Source: Candidatus Omnitrophota bacterium (GTDB lineage Bacteria; Omnitrophota; Gorgyraeia; Pluralincolimonadales; Pluralincolimonadaceae). Taken from it: 64,000 nt of DNA. The position numbers and the translations under genes are program-made. This document shows positions 42,571-54,319 of the stretch, piece by piece. Location of the stretch: contig JBAZFB010000007.1 in assembly GCA_041653595.1 (NCBI GenBank), positions 18,527 to 82,526 on the forward strand, in the 5' to 3' direction. Every line of letters begins with the position of its first letter. Position 1 is the stretch's first letter. The notes below the pieces were generated by a model. That model was not told the origin of the DNA. It was given only the letters and a program-made list of their open reading frames with translations, and made no database searches.

Positions 42571-43657
42571 CTATCACCTCTCTGTATACTTTTTCCACCT
42601 GCCGGGCCATCTTATCCGCCGTAAAATGCGCCTTGGCGTATTTTTTCGCGGCGGCGCTTATCTTTACGGCGAATTCCCGGTCGATTAAAATTTTCTTGAT
42701 AGCCTCTTTGAGTTTCCGGCTGTCCAGCGGGTCGGCCAAAACCCCTATCTCCGCGTCTTTCTGCATCGCCCTGAAATCTCCCACATCGGATGAAACGACC
42801 GGGACGTCCATCAACATAGCCTCTACGATGGACAGGCCGAACCCTTCGCTTGTGCTGGGCCTTACGAACACATCCATCACGGAGAGGAGATCGTGGGTAT
42901 CCAGGGTGTTCCCGACAAAACGCACATTGTCCGCGATACCAAGCTCCGAGACCCTGGCCTTGATCTTATCCTCTATCCTTCCGCTTCCGATTATCAATAA
43001 TTGCGCGCCCGGGACGTCGTCGAGCAGCGCCTTGAACGCCTCGAGGAGGATCATATGGCCCTTCTCTTCCGAAAGCCTCGCTATTATACCGATAACCGGC
43101 CCCCCGTTCAATTTATATCTTTTCCTTATTTCCCGTTTTTCCTGCTCTTTATATACATGCTCAAACCTTGAGGTATCCAGCCCGTTGTATATCAACCGGA
43201 TCTTCTTCTCGTCCCTGTTGAAATCATTTTTCAGGTGGCCGACGACCGACATACTAATGGCTATCGTCATCTCTCCCCAGCACGGCAGGACCTTCCTGAA
43301 AAAATGAGGCTTGTAAAAACCGTGCCATGTCGCGACATAAGGGACCTTGGTCATACTGGAGAGCATGCACGCGGCGAACTGCGCGACCCTCGTCTGGGCA
43401 TGTATTATCTCTATCTTCTCCTCCTTCACCAATTCCCATAACCTGAATACGGTCGCGGTTATCTTCGGGCTGGCGATCGATTTCGTCCCTAACGGGACCT
43501 TCACCGCCTTTACTTCCGGTAAGAGTTGTTTCTCCAGTTCCCCTCCCGCCGAAGCCACGAAGACTGAATGTCCCATAAGTTGCAGGGCATTAGCCAGGGT
43601 AACGGTGTACCTCTCGATGCCTCCTACACGCAGGTTGCTTGTTAAAAGTAATATCCT
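42557..43657 (-). CDS. glycosyltransferase family 4 (GT-B, RfaG/group 1)
   Basis: MRILLLTSNLRVGGIERY N-terminus and C-terminal EGFGLSIVEAM motif. Start trimmed to MRILLL. Confidence 0.85.
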   Translation of the reverse strand, partial: RILLLTSNLRVGGIERYTVTLANALQLMGHSVFVASAGGELEKQLLPEVKAVKVPLGTKSIASPKITATVFRLWELVKEEKIEIIHAQTRVAQFAACMLSSMTKVPYVATWHGFYKPHFFRKVLPCWGEMTIAISMSVVGHLKNDFNRDEKKIRLIYNGLDTSRFEHVYKEQEKREIRKRYKLNGGPVIGIIARLSEEKGHMILLEAFKALLDDVPGAQLLIIGSGRIEDKIKARVSELGIADNVRFVGNTLDTHDLLSVMDVFVRPSTSEGFGLSIVEAMLMDVPVVSSDVGDFRAMQKDAEIGVLADPLDSRKLKEAIKKILIDREFAVKISAAAKKYAKAHFTADKMARQVEKVYREVIDGSK

Positions 43658-45759
43658 CATTTCGGCAACATCACCCCGTCGATCGCTTTTAAGACGTCTT
43701 CCACGGTGATCTCCCTCATGCATCTTATATCCGAACAGACCGGCTTATAGCACGGCGAACATTTCAGGTCCCTTATCACTACCGCGCAATTTTCCGAAGG
43801 CGGCAGGTGGCGATCCGGGTCCGTAGGGCCGAAGAGCGCGACAAATGGCACGGCCATAGCCGCGGCAATATGCATCGGCGCGCTGTCGCTTGTCACGAGG
43901 CATTTAAACCTTTTCATAAGCGCCGCGAGTTCGGGAAGAGATGTCTTCCCGACCAGGTTTATCGGCTTGGACCTCGCCAGTGATAATATCTCGTCGCTCG
44001 TGTTCGCATCGGTTTCCGACCTGCCGCCTATAAGGACAGCCCTTATCTCGCGCTCGCCTAACAGGTCGCAAAGCCTCGCGAAATTCTCGGAGGGCCATTT
44101 TTTTGTGGCCCAGCGCGGGCTCGCGGACGGATTTATTCCGACAAGCGTCTGGTTCTCTCCTACCCACTCCGCCTCAAGCATCTTTTTTATATTTTCCGTA
44201 TCCGAGGCCGAGGGCCAGAGCTCAAGTTTCTTCGACGCGCCCTCTATGCCCATCATCGACAGGACCCCGAACTGGTGGTCCACCGGCGGGAGCGGCCCTT
44301 TGGCGTCCCTTATGGTCCTGTTAAGCAGGAACCAGTATTTACCTTTCCTGTAGCCGTACCTGCGCGGGGCCGCGCTCAGGAAAGCGAACAGGTGGCTCTT
44401 GGAGCTATTCTGGAGATCGACCACTTCCTCGAACCCGTACCTCCTGATCTCGGCCGCCAATTCGAAGAACCTGAGCCATCCCTTATCCCTGCCTTCCCTG
44501 TCATATATTATCGTCTCGTCTATATAAGGGCATCCTTTAAGCGCCTGGCTCTCGACCCTGCCTATCAGCAGGGCTATATACGCCTTCGGATATTTCTGGC
44601 GGATCGCGCGGATCGAAGGCGTGGCGAGGACGCAGTCGCCGACAGCGCTTATTTTCATTATAAGTATCCTCTTTACCCCTAGCGCCTCATCGTATACCCT
44701 AAGCGTCTCGGTCACCAGCCTGTCAAGGTTGAACTTCTCCTCGACGTCTTTCCTGGCGCGCTGCGTGACCTCCCTGGCGAATTTCCGGTCCTTGAGCAGT
44801 CTCACGATCGCCTCTGCCATAGGCTGCGGGTCTTCCGGCGGGACGATAAGCCCGTTCTCGCCGTCCCTCATTATCTCCATAACGCCGCCTACGCCGGTCG
44901 CCACGACCGGCACGCCTGAGGCGAACGCCTCTATTATCACCATCCCGAACCCCTCCGGCACTACGCTCGCCATGACGAGGAGGTCGAGCCTCGCGAGTAT
45001 ATCCGGGATATCGCTCCTCGCGCCGAGGAATTCGACATACCTGGAAAGCCCGAGCCTGTTCACCAGGCTCTCGAGCTCCTGCTTATATCTCTCCTTCTCC
45101 GGCGGGGCATCTCCCACGATGACGACCTTGATGCGGGGGATGTACCTCACAACTTTAGATACCGCCCGTATGAAATATTTATGGCCTTTTATCGGCGAGA
45201 GCCTGCCTATTATCCCTATCGTATATTCATGTTTTACCGATTCGTCCGGCTCCCTGTATTTGAATTTTTCCACGTCCACGCCCCTGTAGACCAGCCTTAT
45301 CCTGCGGAACGGGACCTTGAAATTATCCATCATGTGCTTGGCTACCACCTGGCTCACCGCGATGACGAGCTTGCCCCATCCCATTACCTTGCTGAAACTT
45401 AAAAATTTCTTCGAGTAATGGGCGTGGCAGGTGGTGATGAACGCGACGCCGGCGCCCCGCGCGGCATAATAGCCTATTATGGCCGGGACCCTGCTCTCCG
45501 CGTTAAGGACATCCGCCTTCTCCTGCCTCAATATCCTTTTGACCGCGGGTATCATCCTGAGGACGGTAAGCGGGTTCTTGCTGTGGACGGGAAGGCTGTA
45601 ATGTTTTATCCCGTTCGCCTCAAGGTGCTTTACCATCTCCCCGCCGTTGGATATGACGGTTATATTATGGCCGAGCTTGACCATCCTAAGGCAGAAATTG
45701 AGCACCCCAATCTCAACTCCGCCCGAATTCAACCTCGGTACTATATGGATTATCTTCAT
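43657..45759 (-). CDS. bifunctional glycosyltransferase: N-terminal GT4 domain fused to a C-terminal GT9 heptosyltransferase-like domain
   Basis: Residues 1-370 are GT4-like (MKIIHIVPRLNSGGVE..., EGFGMVIIEAFASGVPVV). Residues ~375-700 are GT9-like (ILIMKISAVGDCVLATPSIRAI ..., TSDSAPMHIAAAMAVP). Confidence 0.8.
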   Translation of the reverse strand: MKIIHIVPRLNSGGVEIGVLNFCLRMVKLGHNITVISNGGEMVKHLEANGIKHYSLPVHSKNPLTVLRMIPAVKRILRQEKADVLNAESRVPAIIGYYAARGAGVAFITTCHAHYSKKFLSFSKVMGWGKLVIAVSQVVAKHMMDNFKVPFRRIRLVYRGVDVEKFKYREPDESVKHEYTIGIIGRLSPIKGHKYFIRAVSKVVRYIPRIKVVIVGDAPPEKERYKQELESLVNRLGLSRYVEFLGARSDIPDILARLDLLVMASVVPEGFGMVIIEAFASGVPVVATGVGGVMEIMRDGENGLIVPPEDPQPMAEAIVRLLKDRKFAREVTQRARKDVEEKFNLDRLVTETLRVYDEALGVKRILIMKISAVGDCVLATPSIRAIRQKYPKAYIALLIGRVESQALKGCPYIDETIIYDREGRDKGWLRFFELAAEIRRYGFEEVVDLQNSSKSHLFAFLSAAPRRYGYRKGKYWFLLNRTIRDAKGPLPPVDHQFGVLSMMGIEGASKKLELWPSASDTENIKKMLEAEWVGENQTLVGINPSASPRWATKKWPSENFARLCDLLGEREIRAVLIGGRSETDANTSDEILSLARSKPINLVGKTSLPELAALMKRFKCLVTSDSAPMHIAAAMAVPFVALFGPTDPDRHLPPSENCAVVIRDLKCSPCYKPVCSDIRCMREITVEDVLKAIDGVMLPK

Positions 45760-47708
45760 AGTATCTTATCGAGCCCCGCCCGGATAGCCTCCATGTCCCC
45801 GCTTAATATATCGGCCTGCTTGTGGTTTATCAGGTGTTTGATATCGCCGCTTATATCCGCCGGGGCCGACACCGCGAGCAGCCCTTCTTTTTCCAGGTTG
45901 CGTACGGAAACTTCCTGTTTCGTCCCCGAAAATTTATTTATTTTTTGCGGCATGAATACCGCTACGGGTTTCCCGGAACTCACGGCTTCGGTCACCATCG
46001 CGACCGATTCGCCGGAAACGACGATCACATCCGACAGCGCGAGGATCCCTTCCACCGCCCCTTCGAAATTATTATCGTTCGCGATCAGGAGGAGTTTGAC
46101 CCTTTCCGATTTGCCGTAACGTTCCTTCAGCGCGAATTCGACCGCCCTCGGAGTCCTCCTCGAGGTCGTGATGAGCACGTCGGCGTCGATATCTCCGGCT
46201 GCCTCCATGACCCGGTCTACCACCTCTACCGCCAATTCTTTCTCGAACGCGTAAGACTTGGAATCTCCGCCCAGCAGCACGCCGATGATCCTGCCCCTGC
46301 TCACGACGGCATGTCTTTTCAGTTTCTCGCCGTATTCGCGCAGGGAATTTTTATCAAGGTCGGTCACCGCCCCCTTGGTGAAGACGGCATTACCGGAATC
46401 CCCGGCTTTGTCGTGGACCGGGATAACGCTGAGGCTAAAATCCTTTATGTTGTACATATTCGGCTTCATGATGACCACGGCCTTTGAGCCGAGCTCTCTC
46501 TTGAAAGCGAGGTTAACGCCGGCGAGCGATGCGCCGCATGATACCACATAATCGGCATAGGCGGCCCTCAGGTTGGCATAAACTTCTTCCGGGAAACAGA
46601 ACGAGAGGCTGTGAAGGCCCATGCCAAGGAGTGAACCTATGTCGAAGACCGTCCTCGCGAGACCGCTCCTGAATTTGACCTCGAGCGTCTCTATCACCGT
46701 GTCTTCCGCGGAGAAACCTCTTTCCACGCGGGCTTTCCTGATCGTATTGGCGAGGGCGCGGGATTGCTTGAAATGGCCAGCCCTCCCGTCGCTTAACACG
46801 AGGACATACCTGGCCGGGGTTGATTTCCAGCGCTTGTGCAGCCATAGCCATTGCCCGGGGTATTTCTCAATATAGCCCGCGAGCTTATCCGTGAACCTCT
46901 GGAGTATCTCGTGTATATCCTTCTTTATATCTTCCGACTGGAGGACAGAGATATCGTCCTCGATCATGACCGTATGATACGGGCCTTTCTGCCGTATTAT
47001 GACGACCGGGAATATCAAGGCTCCGGTCCTCAGGGAAAAATTAGCCGCTCCCTTAGGCGTGGATGCGGGCCGCCCGAGAAAATCCACGAATTCCCCGCGT
47101 TTTCCGCCGTCCTGGTCGGACAATATCCCGACCGTTTCCTTCCTCCTCAAGGCGTCAGTTATCTCTTCTATCGCGTCGTCCTTGAATATGACGTTCGCGC
47201 CTTTCGAACCGCGCATCTTATTCAGGTAATCGTTGAGCCTCTTAAGTTTTTGGAAACGGACAAGGACGTTCATCTTGAATCCAAAGGTAGAACCAGTCAA
47301 GGAACACAGTTCCCAGTTGCCGAAATGGGCGGTGAGGAAGATGACGCCCCTGTCTTCCTCCTTTGCCGCGCTCCTTACCTTATCGAGGCCTTCCACTCTG
47401 ATGTATTTGCTAACGTAATCCTCATCGAACTGCGGGAACTTCAGGAGTTCTATATAGGACTGCGCTAGGTTCTGGTATATTTCTTTTATTATGCGGTTCG
47501 CCTGCGAAGGCGTATACCTGCCCCTGAACGCGGCGCGCAGGTTGGCGTAAGCTACGGTCTTGCGCCTGCCCATCGTATAATATATGAGGCTCCCGAACCG
47601 CCTTGCTATCCAGAGTGAAAGCTTAAGCGGAAGCAGGCGGAATACGAACGCCTCAAGCCTTACGAATAAATATAGGATCCAGTCCGCCAAAAAAGTGCTC
47701 CTCGTCAT
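45756..47708 (-). CDS. two-domain protein: N-terminal LpxL/HtrB-family lipid A acyltransferase fused to a C-terminal ELM1-family (Mito_fiss_Elm1, GT-B-like) domain
   Basis: N-terminal half carries the acyltransferase H-box AHFGNWEL and YPGQWLWLHKRWK. C-terminal half carries the ELM1-family hallmarks LVLSDGRAGH and TTSRRTP. 650 aa. Confidence 0.7.
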   Translation of the reverse strand: MTRSTFLADWILYLFVRLEAFVFRLLPLKLSLWIARRFGSLIYYTMGRRKTVAYANLRAAFRGRYTPSQANRIIKEIYQNLAQSYIELLKFPQFDEDYVSKYIRVEGLDKVRSAAKEEDRGVIFLTAHFGNWELCSLTGSTFGFKMNVLVRFQKLKRLNDYLNKMRGSKGANVIFKDDAIEEITDALRRKETVGILSDQDGGKRGEFVDFLGRPASTPKGAANFSLRTGALIFPVVIIRQKGPYHTVMIEDDISVLQSEDIKKDIHEILQRFTDKLAGYIEKYPGQWLWLHKRWKSTPARYVLVLSDGRAGHFKQSRALANTIRKARVERGFSAEDTVIETLEVKFRSGLARTVFDIGSLLGMGLHSLSFCFPEEVYANLRAAYADYVVSCGASLAGVNLAFKRELGSKAVVIMKPNMYNIKDFSLSVIPVHDKAGDSGNAVFTKGAVTDLDKNSLREYGEKLKRHAVVSRGRIIGVLLGGDSKSYAFEKELAVEVVDRVMEAAGDIDADVLITTSRRTPRAVEFALKERYGKSERVKLLLIANDNNFEGAVEGILALSDVIVVSGESVAMVTEAVSSGKPVAVFMPQKINKFSGTKQEVSVRNLEKEGLLAVSAPADISGDIKHLINHKQADILSGDMEAIRAGLDKIL

Positions 47709-50022: not shown

Positions 50023-50925
50023 TTAAGCCCGCGGGTGCGCTTTTGTATACGCGGACTTGAGCCTTTCGGTAGTTATATGGGTATATATCTGGGTCGTCGA
50101 GAGGTTGGCGTGGCCGAGAAGCTCCTGCACGCTCCTCAGGTCGGCGCCGTGGTCGAGCATATGCGTCGCGAATGAATGGCGCAGGGTGTGCGGCGATATC
50201 TTCTGCTGGATGCTCGCCTTGGTTATATATTTATTTATTATCCTTCTTATCGACCTGTCGGTCAGCCTGCCGCCGTTCTTGTTGAAGAAGAGCGCTTTAT
50301 CCCGCACTTCCATGGAAGTGCGGGACTTAGTCTCCTTCGCGACCGGCCTGCGCGCCTTCAGGTAATCCCTTATAGCCTGGAGCGCCCTCTCGCCTATCGG
50401 CACTATCCTCTCTTTTTTGCCCTTGCCGAACACTTTTATGATCCCGCCTATCTGGTCGATGTAGTCCATATTCAGGCCGACGAGCTCGCTCACCCTTATC
50501 CCTGTCGAATAGAGAGTCTCGAGTATCGCCCTGTCCCTGAGCCCCACCTCGCCCTCCCTGTCGGGCGATTCCAGGAGCAGGACTATCTCTTTTTCGTCCA
50601 GGAACTTCGGGAGGTGTTTGTCCCGCTTTGGCGTCGAAAGCGACGACGCGGGGTTGTTCTTTATTATCCCTTCCCTGAAGAGGAACTTGAAAAAAGACCT
50701 TATCGAGGCGATCTTGCGGGCGATCGAGACCTTCGACAGGTTCTGTTCCTTGACATGCGCCAGATACCTGCGCAGCGAGATGTAATCGACCTTCTCTATC
50801 GGCTCTTCCTTGAGGAATTCATTCAATGATTTGAGATCGACCGAATAGTTTATTAGCGTATGTTTCGAGGCGTTCCTCTCGATCTCAAGATATCTTATGA
50901 ATTTCTCGACGTATCTATCTATCAA
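50023..50925 (-). CDS. xerC: tyrosine site-specific recombinase XerC/XerD family
   Basis: N-terminal SAM-like domain and C-terminal catalytic HTLRHSFATH...LLGH...Y, 300 aa. Confidence 0.9.
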   Translation of the reverse strand: MIDRYVEKFIRYLEIERNASKHTLINYSVDLKSLNEFLKEEPIEKVDYISLRRYLAHVKEQNLSKVSIARKIASIRSFFKFLFREGIIKNNPASSLSTPKRDKHLPKFLDEKEIVLLLESPDREGEVGLRDRAILETLYSTGIRVSELVGLNMDYIDQIGGIIKVFGKGKKERIVPIGERALQAIRDYLKARRPVAKETKSRTSMEVRDKALFFNKNGGRLTDRSIRRIINKYITKASIQQKISPHTLRHSFATHMLDHGADLRSVQELLGHANLSTTQIYTHITTERLKSAYTKAHPRA

Positions 50926-53219
50926 GGCTGCGGCTCCTGCTTGGGCTTATCTTCGGGCTTGCCCTCGCCTGTCGGCGAGGACTGCGCATCGCCTTCTGTT
51001 TGCTTGGGCTTGCCCTCGTCTGCGGACGAGGACTGCGCATCGCCTTCTGTTTGCTTGGGCTTGTTCTCCACGTGCCGGCAGGTGGGGAACCTGGAACAAC
51101 CGTAGAACGCGCCCCGGCGCGACCTGCGTTCTACGAGCTCGCCGTCGCACCCCGGCTCCGGGCACTTTATGCCGGTCGTGACCAAAGGTTTGGCGTTCTT
51201 GCATTCGGGAAATCCTGAACAGCTCTTGAACCTGCCGCGCCTGCCCCACTTTATTATCATCTTCCGTCCGCACTTCTCGCAGACCTCATCGAGCTCCTCG
51301 ACATCTTTCTTGACGTCTTTCATCTCGACCTGGGCCTTTGAGAGCCACTGCGAAAAAGGCCCGTAGAAATCCCTGAGGACCTGCGCCCACTCGACTTTGC
51401 CTTCTTCTATCTCATCGAGCTCTTCTTCCATCTTGGCGGTGAATTCCTCGTCTATGATGACCGGGAAGCTTTGGGTGAGAAGGTCATTGACGACCGTGCC
51501 CAATTCCGTAGGCCATAGCGCTGAGCCTTCACGCCTGACGTAATTGCGGGCGACGACCGTCTCGATGGTGGGCGCGTAAGTGGAAGGGCGGCCGATGCCG
51601 TCTTCCTCGAGCGCCTTTACCAGCGAGGCGTCGGTAAATCTTGGCGGCGGTTTCGTGAAATGCTGGGTCGGGTCGAGTTTTATAAGGTCGACCGTATCGC
51701 CTATCGCGAGTTTCGGTATATATGCCTTCTTCTTGTCCTTTTCTTCCTCTTCATCGTCATACGCGGCCTTAAAGCCGGGGAATATTACAGTCGAGCCCGA
51801 AGCCCTGAACAGGCACTTTCTTGCCTCTATATCTATGGATACGACAGACATGACCGCAGGCCTCATCTGGCTGGCGATGAATTTCGCCCATATCAATTTG
51901 TATAATTTATACTGGTCGGGCGTGAGATATTGCTTTATCGCGTCCGGCTCCCTGGCGGCCGAGGACGGGCGGATCGCCTCGTGGGCTTCCTGCGCGGCTT
52001 TTTTGGACTTATATACATTCGCTTCGGGAGGAAGATAATCTTTCCCGAATTTGTCTTTTATGTAGAACCTTGCCTCCTCTATCGCGGAGAAGGCCACTTT
52101 TACCGAGTCGGTCCTCATGTAAGTGATGAGACCGACAGTGCCCTCGGTCCCGATATCGAGGCCTTCGTAGAGCTGCTGGGCTATCTTCATCGTCTTCCCG
52201 GCCCTGTAATGCAGTTTATTGAAGGATTCCTGCTGCATCTTCGAGGTAGTGAAAGGGGCCTGCGGGTTCATCCTCTTCTCGGTTTCCTTTATATCCTTTA
52301 CCGTATATTTCGCGCCTGAGAGCTCCGCAAGTATCTTATCCGAAGACGCTTTATCTTTAACCTCGGCCTTCGCGTCGTTGATCTTATCCAGCTGCGCGAA
52401 AAAGGATTTCTTATCTTTTTTCTTCTTGAGTTCCGCTTCGAGTTCCCAATATTCAACCGCGACGAACGCCTGTATCTCGCGCTCGCGGTCGACGATGAGT
52501 TTTACCGCGACCGACTGGACCCTTCCCGCGCTCAATCCGCGCGTTATCTTTTTCCAGAGGAGCGGGCTTAAAGAGTAGCCGACTATCCTGTCGAGGACGC
52601 GGCGGGCCTGCTGGGCATTTACCAGCTTGATATCTATCTCGGCGGGATTATCGAAAGCTTCGAGTATCGCCTTCTTCGTTATCTCGTGGAATACGACCCT
52701 CTTGACCTTTTTGTTCTTCCCGAGATACCCGGCCAGGTGCCAGCCTATAGCTTCGCCTTCGCGGTCAGGGTCGGTCGCGATATAAATGGTGTCTTTGTCC
52801 TTCGCTTCGGCCTTCAACTCGCTGAGCAATTTTTTCTTTTTAGCGATCACTTTATAGGTAGGCGTGAAATTGTTCTCTATGTCAATTCCCATCTTTCGCA
52901 TGGGCAGGTCGATGACGTGGCCCATGGATGAGCGGACGGTGTAACCTTTACCGAGGAACTTTTCTATCGTTTTGGCTTTTGCCGGCGACTCGACTATGAC
53001 CAGGGCGCCGCCCTTGCCGCCGCCTACAGGCAGGATTATCTCGACCTTGTCGCCTTCTTTAAGTTTCACGGAATCATATTTCGACCTGTCGAGTATATTG
53101 AGGTTCAATTCGACGGCCGCGTATTTCACGTCGGCCTTAAGGTCCGAGATGAGCCCGGCGACCGTAATGCCGTCATCGGCCTGGATATCTTTTCCGTTCA
53201 CGCATATCTTTATCATCAA
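50922..53219 (-). CDS. topA: DNA topoisomerase I with an in-frame N-terminal ThiS/MoaD-like ubiquitin-fold domain (68 aa ending in GGG) and a C-terminal Lys/Pro-rich tandem repeat
   Basis: Residues 1-68 (MMIKICVNGKDIQADDGITVAGLISDLKADVKYAAVELNLNILDRSKYDSVKLKEGDKVEIILPVGGG) have ThiS length and the terminal Gly-Gly. They run without a stop into the TopA Toprim start ALVIVESPAKAKTIEKFLG. Two Zn-ribbon motifs. C-terminal 17-aa repeats GKPKQTEGDAQSS... Confidence 0.9.
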   Translation of the reverse strand: MMIKICVNGKDIQADDGITVAGLISDLKADVKYAAVELNLNILDRSKYDSVKLKEGDKVEIILPVGGGKGGALVIVESPAKAKTIEKFLGKGYTVRSSMGHVIDLPMRKMGIDIENNFTPTYKVIAKKKKLLSELKAEAKDKDTIYIATDPDREGEAIGWHLAGYLGKNKKVKRVVFHEITKKAILEAFDNPAEIDIKLVNAQQARRVLDRIVGYSLSPLLWKKITRGLSAGRVQSVAVKLIVDREREIQAFVAVEYWELEAELKKKKDKKSFFAQLDKINDAKAEVKDKASSDKILAELSGAKYTVKDIKETEKRMNPQAPFTTSKMQQESFNKLHYRAGKTMKIAQQLYEGLDIGTEGTVGLITYMRTDSVKVAFSAIEEARFYIKDKFGKDYLPPEANVYKSKKAAQEAHEAIRPSSAAREPDAIKQYLTPDQYKLYKLIWAKFIASQMRPAVMSVVSIDIEARKCLFRASGSTVIFPGFKAAYDDEEEEKDKKKAYIPKLAIGDTVDLIKLDPTQHFTKPPPRFTDASLVKALEEDGIGRPSTYAPTIETVVARNYVRREGSALWPTELGTVVNDLLTQSFPVIIDEEFTAKMEEELDEIEEGKVEWAQVLRDFYGPFSQWLSKAQVEMKDVKKDVEELDEVCEKCGRKMIIKWGRRGRFKSCSGFPECKNAKPLVTTGIKCPEPGCDGELVERRSRRGAFYGCSRFPTCRHVENKPKQTEGDAQSSSADEGKPKQTEGDAQSSPTGEGKPEDKPKQEPQP
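50940..51069 (-). repeat. 51-bp tandem direct repeat (2 full copies plus partials) encoding the 17-aa C-terminal repeat of TopA
   Basis: Near-identical units seen directly: cttgggcttgccctcg(c/t)ctg(t/c)gg(c/a)gaggactgcgcatcgccttctgtttg. Confidence 0.7.
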
Positions 53220-54319
53220 CTTTTCCTTACGTACGATTTGCCGGGCAGCTGCGCGATGATGCCTTTGAGCTCGAGCTTGGTAAGGCTGTGCATAACTTCG
53301 GCGACGGGAAGCCCTGTCCCGTCCACTATCTCATCTATATTTACGGGTGTCCCGCTTAATCTCACGAATACATCCTCTTCCTGCCGGCCCAGCCCGCCGG
53401 GAATACGCTCCGGCTCTTCCGGCCTTTCCGCCTTCATATGGCCTCTGATGACATCGCCCAGCTCCTCTATGACGTCATCGGCCGACTCGACGAGTTTGGC
53501 GCCCTGCCTTATCAGCATATTCGTCCCGGCAGAGGTCGCTGCGCGCGCCTGCCCGGGGACAGCAAATAACTCTCTTCCCTGCTCCAGCGCGAAATCTGTC
53601 GTGATCAAGGCGCCTGAATTCTTCGCGGCCTCCACGACTACCACGCCCAGCGAAAGTCCGCTTATTATCCTGTTCCTTCTCGGGAAATTATCCTTATACG
53701 GTTCCATCGCCATCGGGAACTCCGAGACGACCGCGCCGTTCTTTGAGATCTCTTCGGCCAGCCCCATATGCTCTTCCGGATAGATATTAGCGAGGCCGCT
53801 GCCGAGCACAGCTATGGTCCTGCCTTTGGCTTTCAGCGCGCCCTTATGGCCGGCCGCGTCTATGCCGCGAGCCAACCCCGAGACGACGGTCATGCCGTGA
53901 GCGGCCAATTCATAGCCCAGCCTCTCGGCGGTCTGCAGGCCGTAACGGCTCGCGTGCCTCGAGCCGACTATACCTATGGAATACCTGTCCTCGGCCGTCA
54001 ATTCCCCTTTTACGTAAAGGATGATCGGAGGGTCATAGATATCTTTAAGGTTTACAGGGTAATCTTTATCAAGATAAGAGATCACTTTGACGTTGCGCCT
54101 CTCGATAAGCTTCATCTCGCCCTTGAGTGCTTTATCTTTATCGCAACTTATTATCGCGCTTGAGACCTTCGGGCCTATCTGGTCTACTTTCTCTAATTCT
54201 GCTTTCGTGGCGGAGAATATCTTTTCAACTGCCCCAAAGTGCTTCATCAGATTATTAAACCTAATAAAACCTATATCGGGAATACAATTTAAAACTATCA
54301 AAAGCTCTTTTTCGTTCAT
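53216..54319 (-). CDS. dprA: DNA processing protein DprA (Smf)
   Basis: Rossmann-like DprA core (IGIVGSRHASRYG, VVSGLARGIDAAGH) and a C-terminal winged-helix-like tail. Its stop overlaps the topA start (ATGA). Confidence 0.9.
   Translation of the reverse strand: MNEKELLIVLNCIPDIGFIRFNNLMKHFGAVEKIFSATKAELEKVDQIGPKVSSAIISCDKDKALKGEMKLIERRNVKVISYLDKDYPVNLKDIYDPPIILYVKGELTAEDRYSIGIVGSRHASRYGLQTAERLGYELAAHGMTVVSGLARGIDAAGHKGALKAKGRTIAVLGSGLANIYPEEHMGLAEEISKNGAVVSEFPMAMEPYKDNFPRRNRIISGLSLGVVVVEAAKNSGALITTDFALEQGRELFAVPGQARAATSAGTNMLIRQGAKLVESADDVIEELGDVIRGHMKAERPEEPERIPGGLGRQEEDVFVRLSGTPVNIDEIVDGTGLPVAEVMHSLTKLELKGIIAQLPGKSYVRKS

Follow-up and report, generated by a model that had tools for sequence, protein, structure and literature searches.

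A ThiS-family ubiquitin-fold domain joined by an internal Gly-Gly to topoisomerase I in Omnitrophota

When a ThiS domain continues without a stop into a DNA topoisomerase, are the two truly one polypeptide, and is the ThiS part released from the enzyme or kept as a part of it? The question is raised by thiS::topA, a minus-strand gene in a 64,000-nucleotide stretch of a Candidatus Omnitrophota genome (contig JBAZFB010000007.1, positions 18,527 to 82,526; hereafter the window, to which all coordinates refer unless a locus is named). An inspection of the DNA letters and their translated reading frames (the sequence-only reading) had noticed that topoisomerase I (TopA) carries here an in-frame, N-terminal ThiS-like domain of the ubiquitin fold, and had proposed that this domain is either a processed ubiquitin-like (Ubl) tag or a regulatory or interaction domain. 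We report that the fusion is real and widespread among relatives of the window. Both proposals for its role are still live, and the invariance of the Gly-Gly at the junction favours processing.

A ThiS domain and topoisomerase I in one reading frame

The window holds an uninterrupted minus-strand open reading frame (ORF) at 50922..53219, of 765 codons when counted from the first in-frame TTG and closed by a TGA at 50922-50924, with zero stop codons between the ThiS-like part and TopA. Matches to the models TIGR01683, PF02597 and TIGR01051 bear out the in-frame joining of a ThiS-like domain to the N-terminus of a complete TopA. Residues 1-67, counted from the ATG, read MIKICVNGKDIQADDGITVAGLISDLKADVKYAAVELNLNILDRSKYDSVKLKEGDKVEIILPVGGG. 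They match the NCBIfam equivalog TIGR01683 (thiS) with 66.7 bits (cut-off 37.45) over the entire model (1-64 of 64), the match ending exactly at Gly-Gly, and Pfam PF02597 (ThiS) with 47.7 bits (cut-off 22.5). The sequence matches of this domain in the PDB are ThiS structures, namely 2k5p/3cwi (6e-9), 2lek and 1tyg_B. Structure prediction, proposed by the sequence-only reading as a check, gave a confident beta-grasp domain and a confident TopA core with a low-confidence joint. In this AlphaFold2 (AF2) run, which used a 63-sequence alignment of fused homologues, the predicted local distance difference test score (pLDDT) was 84-92 over residues 1-62, with strands at 2-6, 9-13, 34-37, 40-42 and 57-61 and a helix at 19-25. 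The predicted order, strand-strand-helix-strand-strand-strand, is that of the beta-grasp (ubiquitin-like) fold.

The residues of the ThiS signature (N7, G8, E36, N38, D56 and E59, plus the Gly-Gly) are invariant or nearly so in the fused homologues, despite a mean pairwise identity of 47% between their ThiS domains. One family trait is lacking, namely a chain that ends in Gly-Gly: the motif is internal here and is followed by a linker and 693 further residues. The closest solved ThiS, that of Geobacter metallireducens (PDB 2k5p/3cwi), aligns through ...MGGGK, with at least one residue after GGG in the deposited chain. Across 66 ThiS domains the mean net charge is -1.7; because the domain is acidic to neutral, a role in DNA binding, which was considered, is unlikely.

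The remainder of the protein is, as judged from its sequence, a complete and catalytically intact bacterial topoisomerase I, for which DNA relaxation is predicted. TIGR01051 (topA_bact) covers residues 72-677 with 816 bits (cut-off 456.4), and the stretch that follows KGGA, LVIVESPAKAKTIEKFLG..., is the usual bacterial topoisomerase I N-terminus minus its initiator Met. Catalytic E76 (in LVIVESPAK), D149, D151 and E153 (in DPDREGE) and Y366 (in ITYMRTDS) are all invariant in 63 fused homologues; the zinc-ribbon cysteines are 646/649/666/672 and 685/690/707/713. The AlphaFold model superposes on TopA of E. coli, S. mutans, M. tuberculosis and T. maritima, with Foldseek values of E=2.8e-67 for E. 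coli TopA (4rul) and a target-normalised TM-score of 0.96 for that of S. mutans (6ozw). No solved TopA structure among the Foldseek matches carries an N-terminal ThiS-like domain. The C-terminal tail contains a 51-nt tandem duplication at 50955-51063 (2.1 copies, 94% match) that encodes KPKQTEGDAQSS twice, as KPKQTEGDAQSS[S/P]..EG.

Translation almost certainly starts at the ATG at 53216 and not, as had been assumed, at the TTG at 53219, because in a DNA alignment two close relatives have TTA, a non-start codon, just before the ATG, and because the NCBI entry (MFA5339373.1, Candidatus Omnitrophota bacterium, under the name 'type I DNA topoisomerase') gives the 764-aa product. The reported overlap between the start of this gene and the stop of dprA stands, although its form was misread: the two share one base in the window (TGATG), and it is in the relatives L082 and L083 that the 4-base ATGA overlap occurs. 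Given overlaps at both ends of thiS::topA, dprA, thiS::topA and xerC form a tightly coupled unit. The order dprA-thiS::topA-xerC-waaA-lpxK is retained in the relative locus L001.

A vertically inherited gene fusion

A search with the full-length protein found the same fusion in 65 of the 119 best TopA relatives (55-96% identity), so that the recurrence in related genomes for which the sequence-only reading had asked is abundant. All organism-named matches among these 119 are Omnitrophota/Omnitrophica. The 65 fused proteins carry ThiS, Toprim, Topoisom_bac and zinc ribbons in one chain of 727-795 aa (two are partial), a spread in length to which the C-terminal tail may contribute, and the remaining 54 are ordinary TopA of 653-710 aa. 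Every one of the 63 aligned fused proteins matches both TIGR01051 (topA) and TIGR01683 (thiS), the latter at E<=1e-5. Shorter queries gave a false impression of rarity: residues 1-200 returned five fragmentary fusions, and a profile of the junction, run against 1.84 billion cluster representatives, retrieved seven. RIFCSPLOWO2_12_FULL_51_24 and its kin, which share the window's 90% DprA cluster, belong to class Gorgyraia (Koll11 in GTDB), order Pluralincolimonadales (UBA6215), according to Seymour et al. 2023 (PMC10066038), and a more distant fused example, CG1_02_49_10, is from Gorgyraia too. By these homologues the fusion spans a large Omnitrophota clade, whose named members, where placed, are Gorgyraia.

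That the fusion is a product of sequencing or assembly, a missing base hiding a stop after GGG, can be dismissed with near certainty. In a related subclade the two genes are indeed separate and differ in frame, and a 713-nt contig (L083, ENA ERZ27313051) does seem to end the ThiS ORF early, but the in-frame junction recurs in 65 other proteins, independent homologues drawn from NCBI, JGI, ENA and Logan assemblies that include 91-96% identical ones, and no TopA start codon lies downstream of the junction. The contig L083 is ~97% like the window up to GTAGGCGGCG, inside the GGG codons, and gives rise to a false 72-aa 'free ThiS' (P0273, ending ...VGGDTRNIQ before a stop). This was considered as a 95%-identical unfused allele and rejected: in the DNA alignment the contig switches to unrelated sequence after GGCGGCG, and L083 is therefore a chimeric contig end and not an indel. 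Contig-end chimeras can evidently mimic an unfused allele.

A separate internal start for TopA, which the sequence-only reading had named as another way in which the fusion might prove illusory, was also rejected. There is no ATG, GTG or TTG between GGG and LVIVESP in the window, a Met occurs in just 2 of the 66 linkers compared, and the initiator Met of TopA is gone. Unfused relatives begin M-[AKS]-K-[SAK]-LVIVESP and fused ones often retain K-[SA] right before LVIVESP; the fusion therefore replaced the TopA start codon and was not added to it.

Pairwise identities of the ThiS domains and of the TopA cores (mean 47% and 68%, respectively) are closely correlated (r=0.925; Mantel 0/999). It follows that a single old event joined the two parts, which have been passed on jointly ever since. 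The homologue comparisons establish a real, vertically inherited gene fusion in which, to judge from the junctions, thiS lost its stop codon and topA its start codon. Outside the clade, a hidden Markov model (HMM) scan detected no ThiS-like ORF within ~10 kb of topA at any of 80 control loci of other phyla (unrelated bacterial topA retrieved by the universal TopA motifs LVIVESPAK and KTIxKFLG). Long matches in Hafnia and Scandinavium (L050 and L061) were discarded as well, L061 being an ordinary enterobacterial topA and the HMM scan being without a ThiS-like ORF in both. At three unfused Omnitrophota loci on different branches (L086-L088), thiS is absent despite the conserved order leuA-aroE-pilD-aroC-aroK-dprA-topA-xerC. 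This state without thiS at topA appears to be the ancestral one.

A neighbour-joining tree of TopA cores places an unfused group of another kind (P0448-P0455) within the fused clade. Its loci L084 and L085 have a free-standing thiS after dprA and before topA, out of frame with the latter. The split ThiS ends in GGG-NRII, i.e. with a 4-residue tail, or in GGG plus 22 residues, and the split TopA has its own ATG or GTG start, overlapping the thiS stop or 5 nt after it. We interpret these loci as the outcome of a secondary fission by frameshift in which thiS was kept intact, implying that the covalent link is probably dispensable. For a tail after GGG to do no harm, either it must be removed or the protein must have no need of its C-terminus.

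The loss of a stop codon between overlapping or adjacent genes is mechanically easy, and all neighbours here overlap. Reversal would need a new stop plus a new start for an essential gene, so that even a neutral fusion could persist. ThiS might on these grounds be a functionless evolutionary passenger, fused by stop-codon loss and tolerated on an essential enzyme, but we regard this as quite improbable. By its substitution pattern the ThiS domain is under purifying selection in the fused and split states alike, with dN/dS of 0.071/0.415 (~0.17) for two fused genes and 0.231/1.01 (~0.23) for two split genes (rough estimates by Nei-Gojobori on short sequences). Nor do the near-invariant signature residues at 47% mean identity, the passing of 63/63 members as ThiS at E<=1e-5, or the keeping of an intact thiS after fission, where it could have been lost, sit well with a passenger.

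The Gly-Gly junction and the fate of the fusion protein

The last two glycines of the ThiS domain are invariant in all 66 fused sequences used for the junction statistics, and the third is present in 64 of them, the exceptions being AGG and CGG. GGG is followed by Ala in 33/66 and by Ser in 16/66. What follows is far less constrained: the linker before LVIVESP has 4-23 residues (median 5) and is rich in A, S, G and K, with no position conserved. In the AF2 model, residues 63-68 (PVGGGK) have pLDDT <50 and join the confident ThiS domain to a TopA core that is mostly >85, so the Gly-Gly junction is predicted to be exposed. An uncleaved 85-kDa protein would carry the junction-spanning sequence ...PVGGGKGGALVIVESPAK.

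A few homologues have unusual junctions. The linker of P0461, GGG-APKPKSLGIVKSPAKSKTIHRKS-LVIVESP, is a degenerate partial duplication of the Toprim N-terminus. P0127, a 146-aa fragment, is a divergent ThiS-TopA fusion with a Lys/Ala/Pro-rich linker of ~60 residues. P0124-P0126 are likewise divergent; at locus L091, which encodes P0125, no dprA was called in the 242 nt upstream, and the fusion may occur there in a second genomic context or lineage. In P0133 (259 aa), what comes after a ThiS domain ending FVGGGSPARALVI... is not TopA but a family 9 glycosyltransferase (heptosyltransferase), of which the C-terminal half is present. This protein stems either from a genuine rearrangement or from a chimeric assembly with its join at a similar 'ALVI' stretch; family 9 glycosyltransferases are found ~10 kb downstream of topA in the window.

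The diglycine at the C-terminus of ThiS and MoaD lies outside the fold; this end is adenylated by an E1-like enzyme and bears the thiocarboxylate. UBL domains that are integral parts of larger proteins are generally without the diglycine, which processed modifiers keep. In the fused proteins it is kept in 66/66, unlike in integral, non-processed UBL domains, and the layout is that of a Ubl precursor, with an N-terminal Ubl, a conserved Gly-Gly before the partner and a predicted exposed junction. An invariant Gly-Gly beside a drifting linker implies that this end is probably still used, which requires proteolysis. The reading that we favour, if tentatively, is that the polypeptide is a precursor that would be cut after Gly-Gly, freeing a ThiS carrier and an ordinary TopA.

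In such a scheme a peptidase, most plausibly of the JAMM/MPN+ type and encoded elsewhere in the genome, would cut after Gly-Gly. The cut would free the C-terminal carboxylate of ThiS that an E1-like adenylating enzyme needs for thiocarboxylate formation, and would leave TopA with few extra N-terminal residues, working as an ordinary DNA-relaxing enzyme. The neo-N-terminal peptide would be (K)GGALVIVESPAK and the C-terminal peptide of ThiS VEIILPVGGG, the uncleaved form giving VEIILPVGGGK. The fusion would then be a co-expression arrangement, or possibly a folding aid within the same chain, and the released ThiS could act in making the thiazole of thiamine or in a different sulfur or tagging pathway that depends on an E1. 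Cleavage of this kind has precedents. MoaX of M. tuberculosis must be cut between Gly82 and Ser83 for activity (PMC4326299), and the Ala or Ser that most often follows GGG in the fused proteins resembles this Gly/Ser site. In Deinococcus, MoaD-MoaE is cut by a JAMM peptidase (PMC8832034), and for any protein in which ThiS or MoaD is joined to a second one, Iyer et al. 2006 (PMC1779556) predicted JAB cleavage. If the organism trims all that comes after Gly-Gly, this would fit both with the fission being tolerated and with the tails that the split ThiS proteins bear.

Several observations weigh against a cleaved precursor. A Pfam search of all 60 large ORFs of the window found no ThiF/MoeB-type E1, ThiG, ThiH, ThiC, ThiE, MoaE or JAMM peptidase; the absence of thiF, thiG and moaD-pathway genes that had been noticed nearby extends to the whole 64 kb. 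The peptidases in the window are solely Lon, ClpP, an M50 peptidase and a prepilin peptidase, with no JAMM/MPN+ member. Rfam detected no RNA family anywhere in the 64 kb at its gathering thresholds, and therefore no thiamine pyrophosphate (TPP) riboswitch. The association with thi genes or a TPP riboswitch that marks the ThiS family is likewise missing from the relative loci L001, L084 and L085. The long retention of thiS in a dprA-topA-xerC operon without them points by association to a DNA-related role and away from thiamine. The split forms are without a stop directly after Gly-Gly, which would be the simplest fix if a free end were needed. As a weak hint, thiG and thiF are unlisted in the two complete KEGG Orthology (KO) lists available for Omnitrophota genomes (IDs 58 and 231 of Seymour et al.). 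One of these two lists, likewise only a hint as regards the fusion clade, includes thiS, moaD, moeB (K21029) and the JAMM peptidase gene mec (K21140). More than 75% of Omnitrophota encode thiamine biosynthesis according to Seymour et al. 2023 (PMC10066038); the thiamine module used there (M00127) is K03147 (thiC) plus a thiD-type kinase only, and the statement therefore does not cover the thiazole (ThiS/ThiF/ThiG) branch.

Much of this would suit a different arrangement, in which ThiS is a permanent, uncleaved N-terminal accessory domain of TopA, a non-covalent subunit in the split subclade, and no longer a sulfur carrier. It would be a module for regulation or for protein-protein interaction and would, for example, recruit TopA to a partner or gate the Toprim/active-site region. 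We hold this to be possible, with less conviction than we give to cleavage. The translationally coupled dprA-topA-xerC unit without thi genes or riboswitch, the split forms with tails past GGG in place of Gly-Gly ends, and the two KO lists without thiG and thiF all speak for it. So does the linkage of thiS and topA, fused or adjacent, which is clade-specific and stable and is absent from the 80 control and three Omnitrophota loci, a classic 'Rosetta stone' sign of shared function. TopA lineages of the Planctomycetes-Verrucomicrobia-Chlamydiae (PVC) group have, moreover, gained other domains, as in the chlamydial TopA-SWIB fusion (NF004966). On the other side, an uncleaved appendage gives no obvious reason for strict Gly-Gly invariance beside a hypervariable linker; 63/63 domains are still equivalog-level ThiS, with no drift toward another role; the model predicts a disordered, undocked tether, and tether length ranges from 4 to ~60 residues; fission was tolerated; and the negative mean charge makes binding to DNA unlikely.

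A further picture, which we think unlikely, would have a dedicated Gly-Gly peptidase release ThiS as a non-thiamine carrier or modifier of an E1 pathway tied to DNA topology or recombination (dprA-topA-xerC), or would have regulated cleavage of the Ubl switch TopA on. In both versions bacteria would have a parallel to ubiquitin-fusion genes that is coupled to a DNA enzyme. The non-thiamine role in this picture is suggested because thiG and thiF may be absent from these genomes.

Gene neighbourhood and relation to known systems

The coordinates of the fusion gene, its parts and its neighbours are collected in Table 1.

Table 1 Features of the thiS::topA locus, in window coordinates unless a locus is named.
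Feature	Coordinates	Strand	Evidence or remark
thiS::topA fusion gene	50922..53216	-	764 aa + stop; identical to NCBI MFA5339373.1
ThiS-family beta-grasp domain, residues 1-67 (MIKICVNGK...EIILPVGGG)	53016..53216	-	TIGR01683, PF02597, PDB sequence matches, AF2
Gly65-Gly66-Gly67, ThiS C-terminal motif, here internal; putative cleavage site	53016..53024	-	Homologue alignment; AF2 pLDDT <50, residues 63-68
Linker KGGA, residues 68-71	53004..53015	-	4-23 aa in homologues, up to ~60 in fragment P0127
Toprim domain, residues 72-179, starting LVIVESPAK without a Met of its own	52680..53003	-	DPDREGE acidic motif at 52752-52772
Topoisom_bac core, residues 194-614	51375..52637	-	Active-site Y366 in ITYMRTDS, motif at 52104-52127
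Two C4 zinc ribbons, C646-C672 and C685-C713	51078..51281	-	PF01396, two stretches
Predicted disordered C-terminal tail of TopA	50925..51068	-	AF2 pLDDT <40; residues ~717-764
dprA	53216..54319	-	Immediately upstream; TGA stop overlaps the thiS::topA ATG
xerC	50023..50925	-	Immediately downstream; TTG start overlaps the topA TGA stop (TTGA)
Split thiS ORFs	L084 2174-2386; L085 5726-5995		Tails after GGG

The rest of the window is of housekeeping character, with ilv/leu and aro biosynthesis genes, genes for the lipopolysaccharide (LPS) core and lipid A, and type IV pilus genes, and it also holds Lon, ClpP, trigger factor, purA, serA, a proton-pumping pyrophosphatase, dxr and rseP. Of its 60 large ORFs, 57 lie on the minus strand, with stops and starts mostly overlapping or near-abutting. 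Two further multi-domain fusions occur in the LPS region: a lipid A acyltransferase (Lip_A_acyltrans) joined to an ELM1-like domain (650 aa, 45756-47708, minus strand), which is kept in L001, L084, L085, L087 and L088, and a GT4 glycosyltransferase joined to a GT9 heptosyltransferase (700 aa, 43657-45759, minus strand).

Taken separately, the ThiS and TopA parts are, by their sequences, ordinary members of their families; it is their combination that appears undescribed in the literature searched, widespread though it is, unremarked, in public databases. The sequence-only reading knew of no TopA with this architecture, and for the literature searched this holds, but the architecture is common in public metagenome-assembled genomes of Omnitrophota, where it goes under the name 'type I DNA topoisomerase'. 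Broad surveys of prokaryotic Ubl and beta-grasp proteins (including PMC1779556) record ThiS/MoaD fusions to ThiG, MoaE, sulfite reductase, aldehyde ferredoxin oxidoreductase and others. A topoisomerase or Toprim fusion is not mentioned in those surveys, full-text literature searches gave nothing relevant, and the word 'topoisomerase' is absent from the Omnitrophota genomics papers searched. Proteins named only 'type I DNA topoisomerase' hide their ThiS domain, which is therefore silently missed in per-protein KO pathway reconstructions. The pairing is new in that it joins TopA, an essential and heavily studied enzyme, to ThiS, a textbook prokaryotic relative of ubiquitin.

Among topoisomerases, the nearest parallel is the chlamydial TopA-SWIB protein, in which, as here, a full type IA TopA core has acquired an extra domain in a PVC-group lineage. 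The accessory additions to TopA known so far are C-terminal and bind DNA or chromatin, unlike the N-terminal, acidic, ubiquitin-like domain described here, which is attached via Gly-Gly. If left unprocessed, this domain would be a regulatory addition of a new kind at the N-terminus of a type IA topoisomerase.

Among ThiS proteins, the best-scoring free homologues of the fused domain are ordinary thiamine ThiS (L089/L090); one of them, P0144, ends exactly in GG and sits in a thiS-thiG-thiH-thiE operon. Canonical ThiS ends at Gly-Gly and is encoded beside thiG and thiF or thiH, whereas in thiS::topA the motif is internal, the gene belongs to a dprA-topA-xerC unit and no thi gene lies within 64 kb. 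A buried Gly-Gly is also found in ThiS-ThiG fusions (P0159, P0262), which share the TIGR01683 family and the VGGG end. In the QbsE/QbsD and CysO/Mec systems, carriers have residues past Gly-Gly or are conjugated there, and are processed by JAMM peptidases before or after E1 activation. The split Omnitrophota ThiS, with tails of 4 and 22 residues, recalls these carriers, but JAMM and E1 genes accompany the carrier in its operon in those systems and neither is present in the window. The gene-neighbourhood types of such JAMM/Ubl systems are listed in PMC1779556.

The closest analogues are two kinds of N-terminal leader. MoaD-MoaE proteins (MoaX of M. tuberculosis and that of Deinococcus radiodurans) share with the fusion an N-terminal carrier of the ThiS/MoaD family, an internal Gly-Gly and a small residue after it; they differ in that MoaE is the carrier's own pathway partner, whereas in thiS::topA the carrier precedes an essential DNA enzyme to which it is unrelated, has no pathway gene in its vicinity, and would be cleaved by analogy. 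In eukaryotic ubiquitin-ribosomal fusions of the UBA52/RPS27A type, ubiquitin ending in Gly-Gly precedes a housekeeping protein, is released by a Gly-Gly-specific peptidase, and is conserved in this arrangement across a large clade. The likeness lies in a Ubl with Gly-Gly placed in frame, clade-wide, ahead of an unrelated housekeeping protein, and the differences are that those fusions carry true ubiquitin, have dedicated deubiquitinases and release a protein modifier, whereas here we deal with a bacterial ThiS-family member. If processing takes place, thiS::topA would be a third independent case, after the ubiquitin-ribosomal and MoaD-MoaE fusions, of a ubiquitin-fold leader on a housekeeping protein and the first with an unrelated bacterial enzyme as the partner, and it would imply a Gly-Gly-specific peptidase in an uncultured phylum and offer a handle with which to find it.

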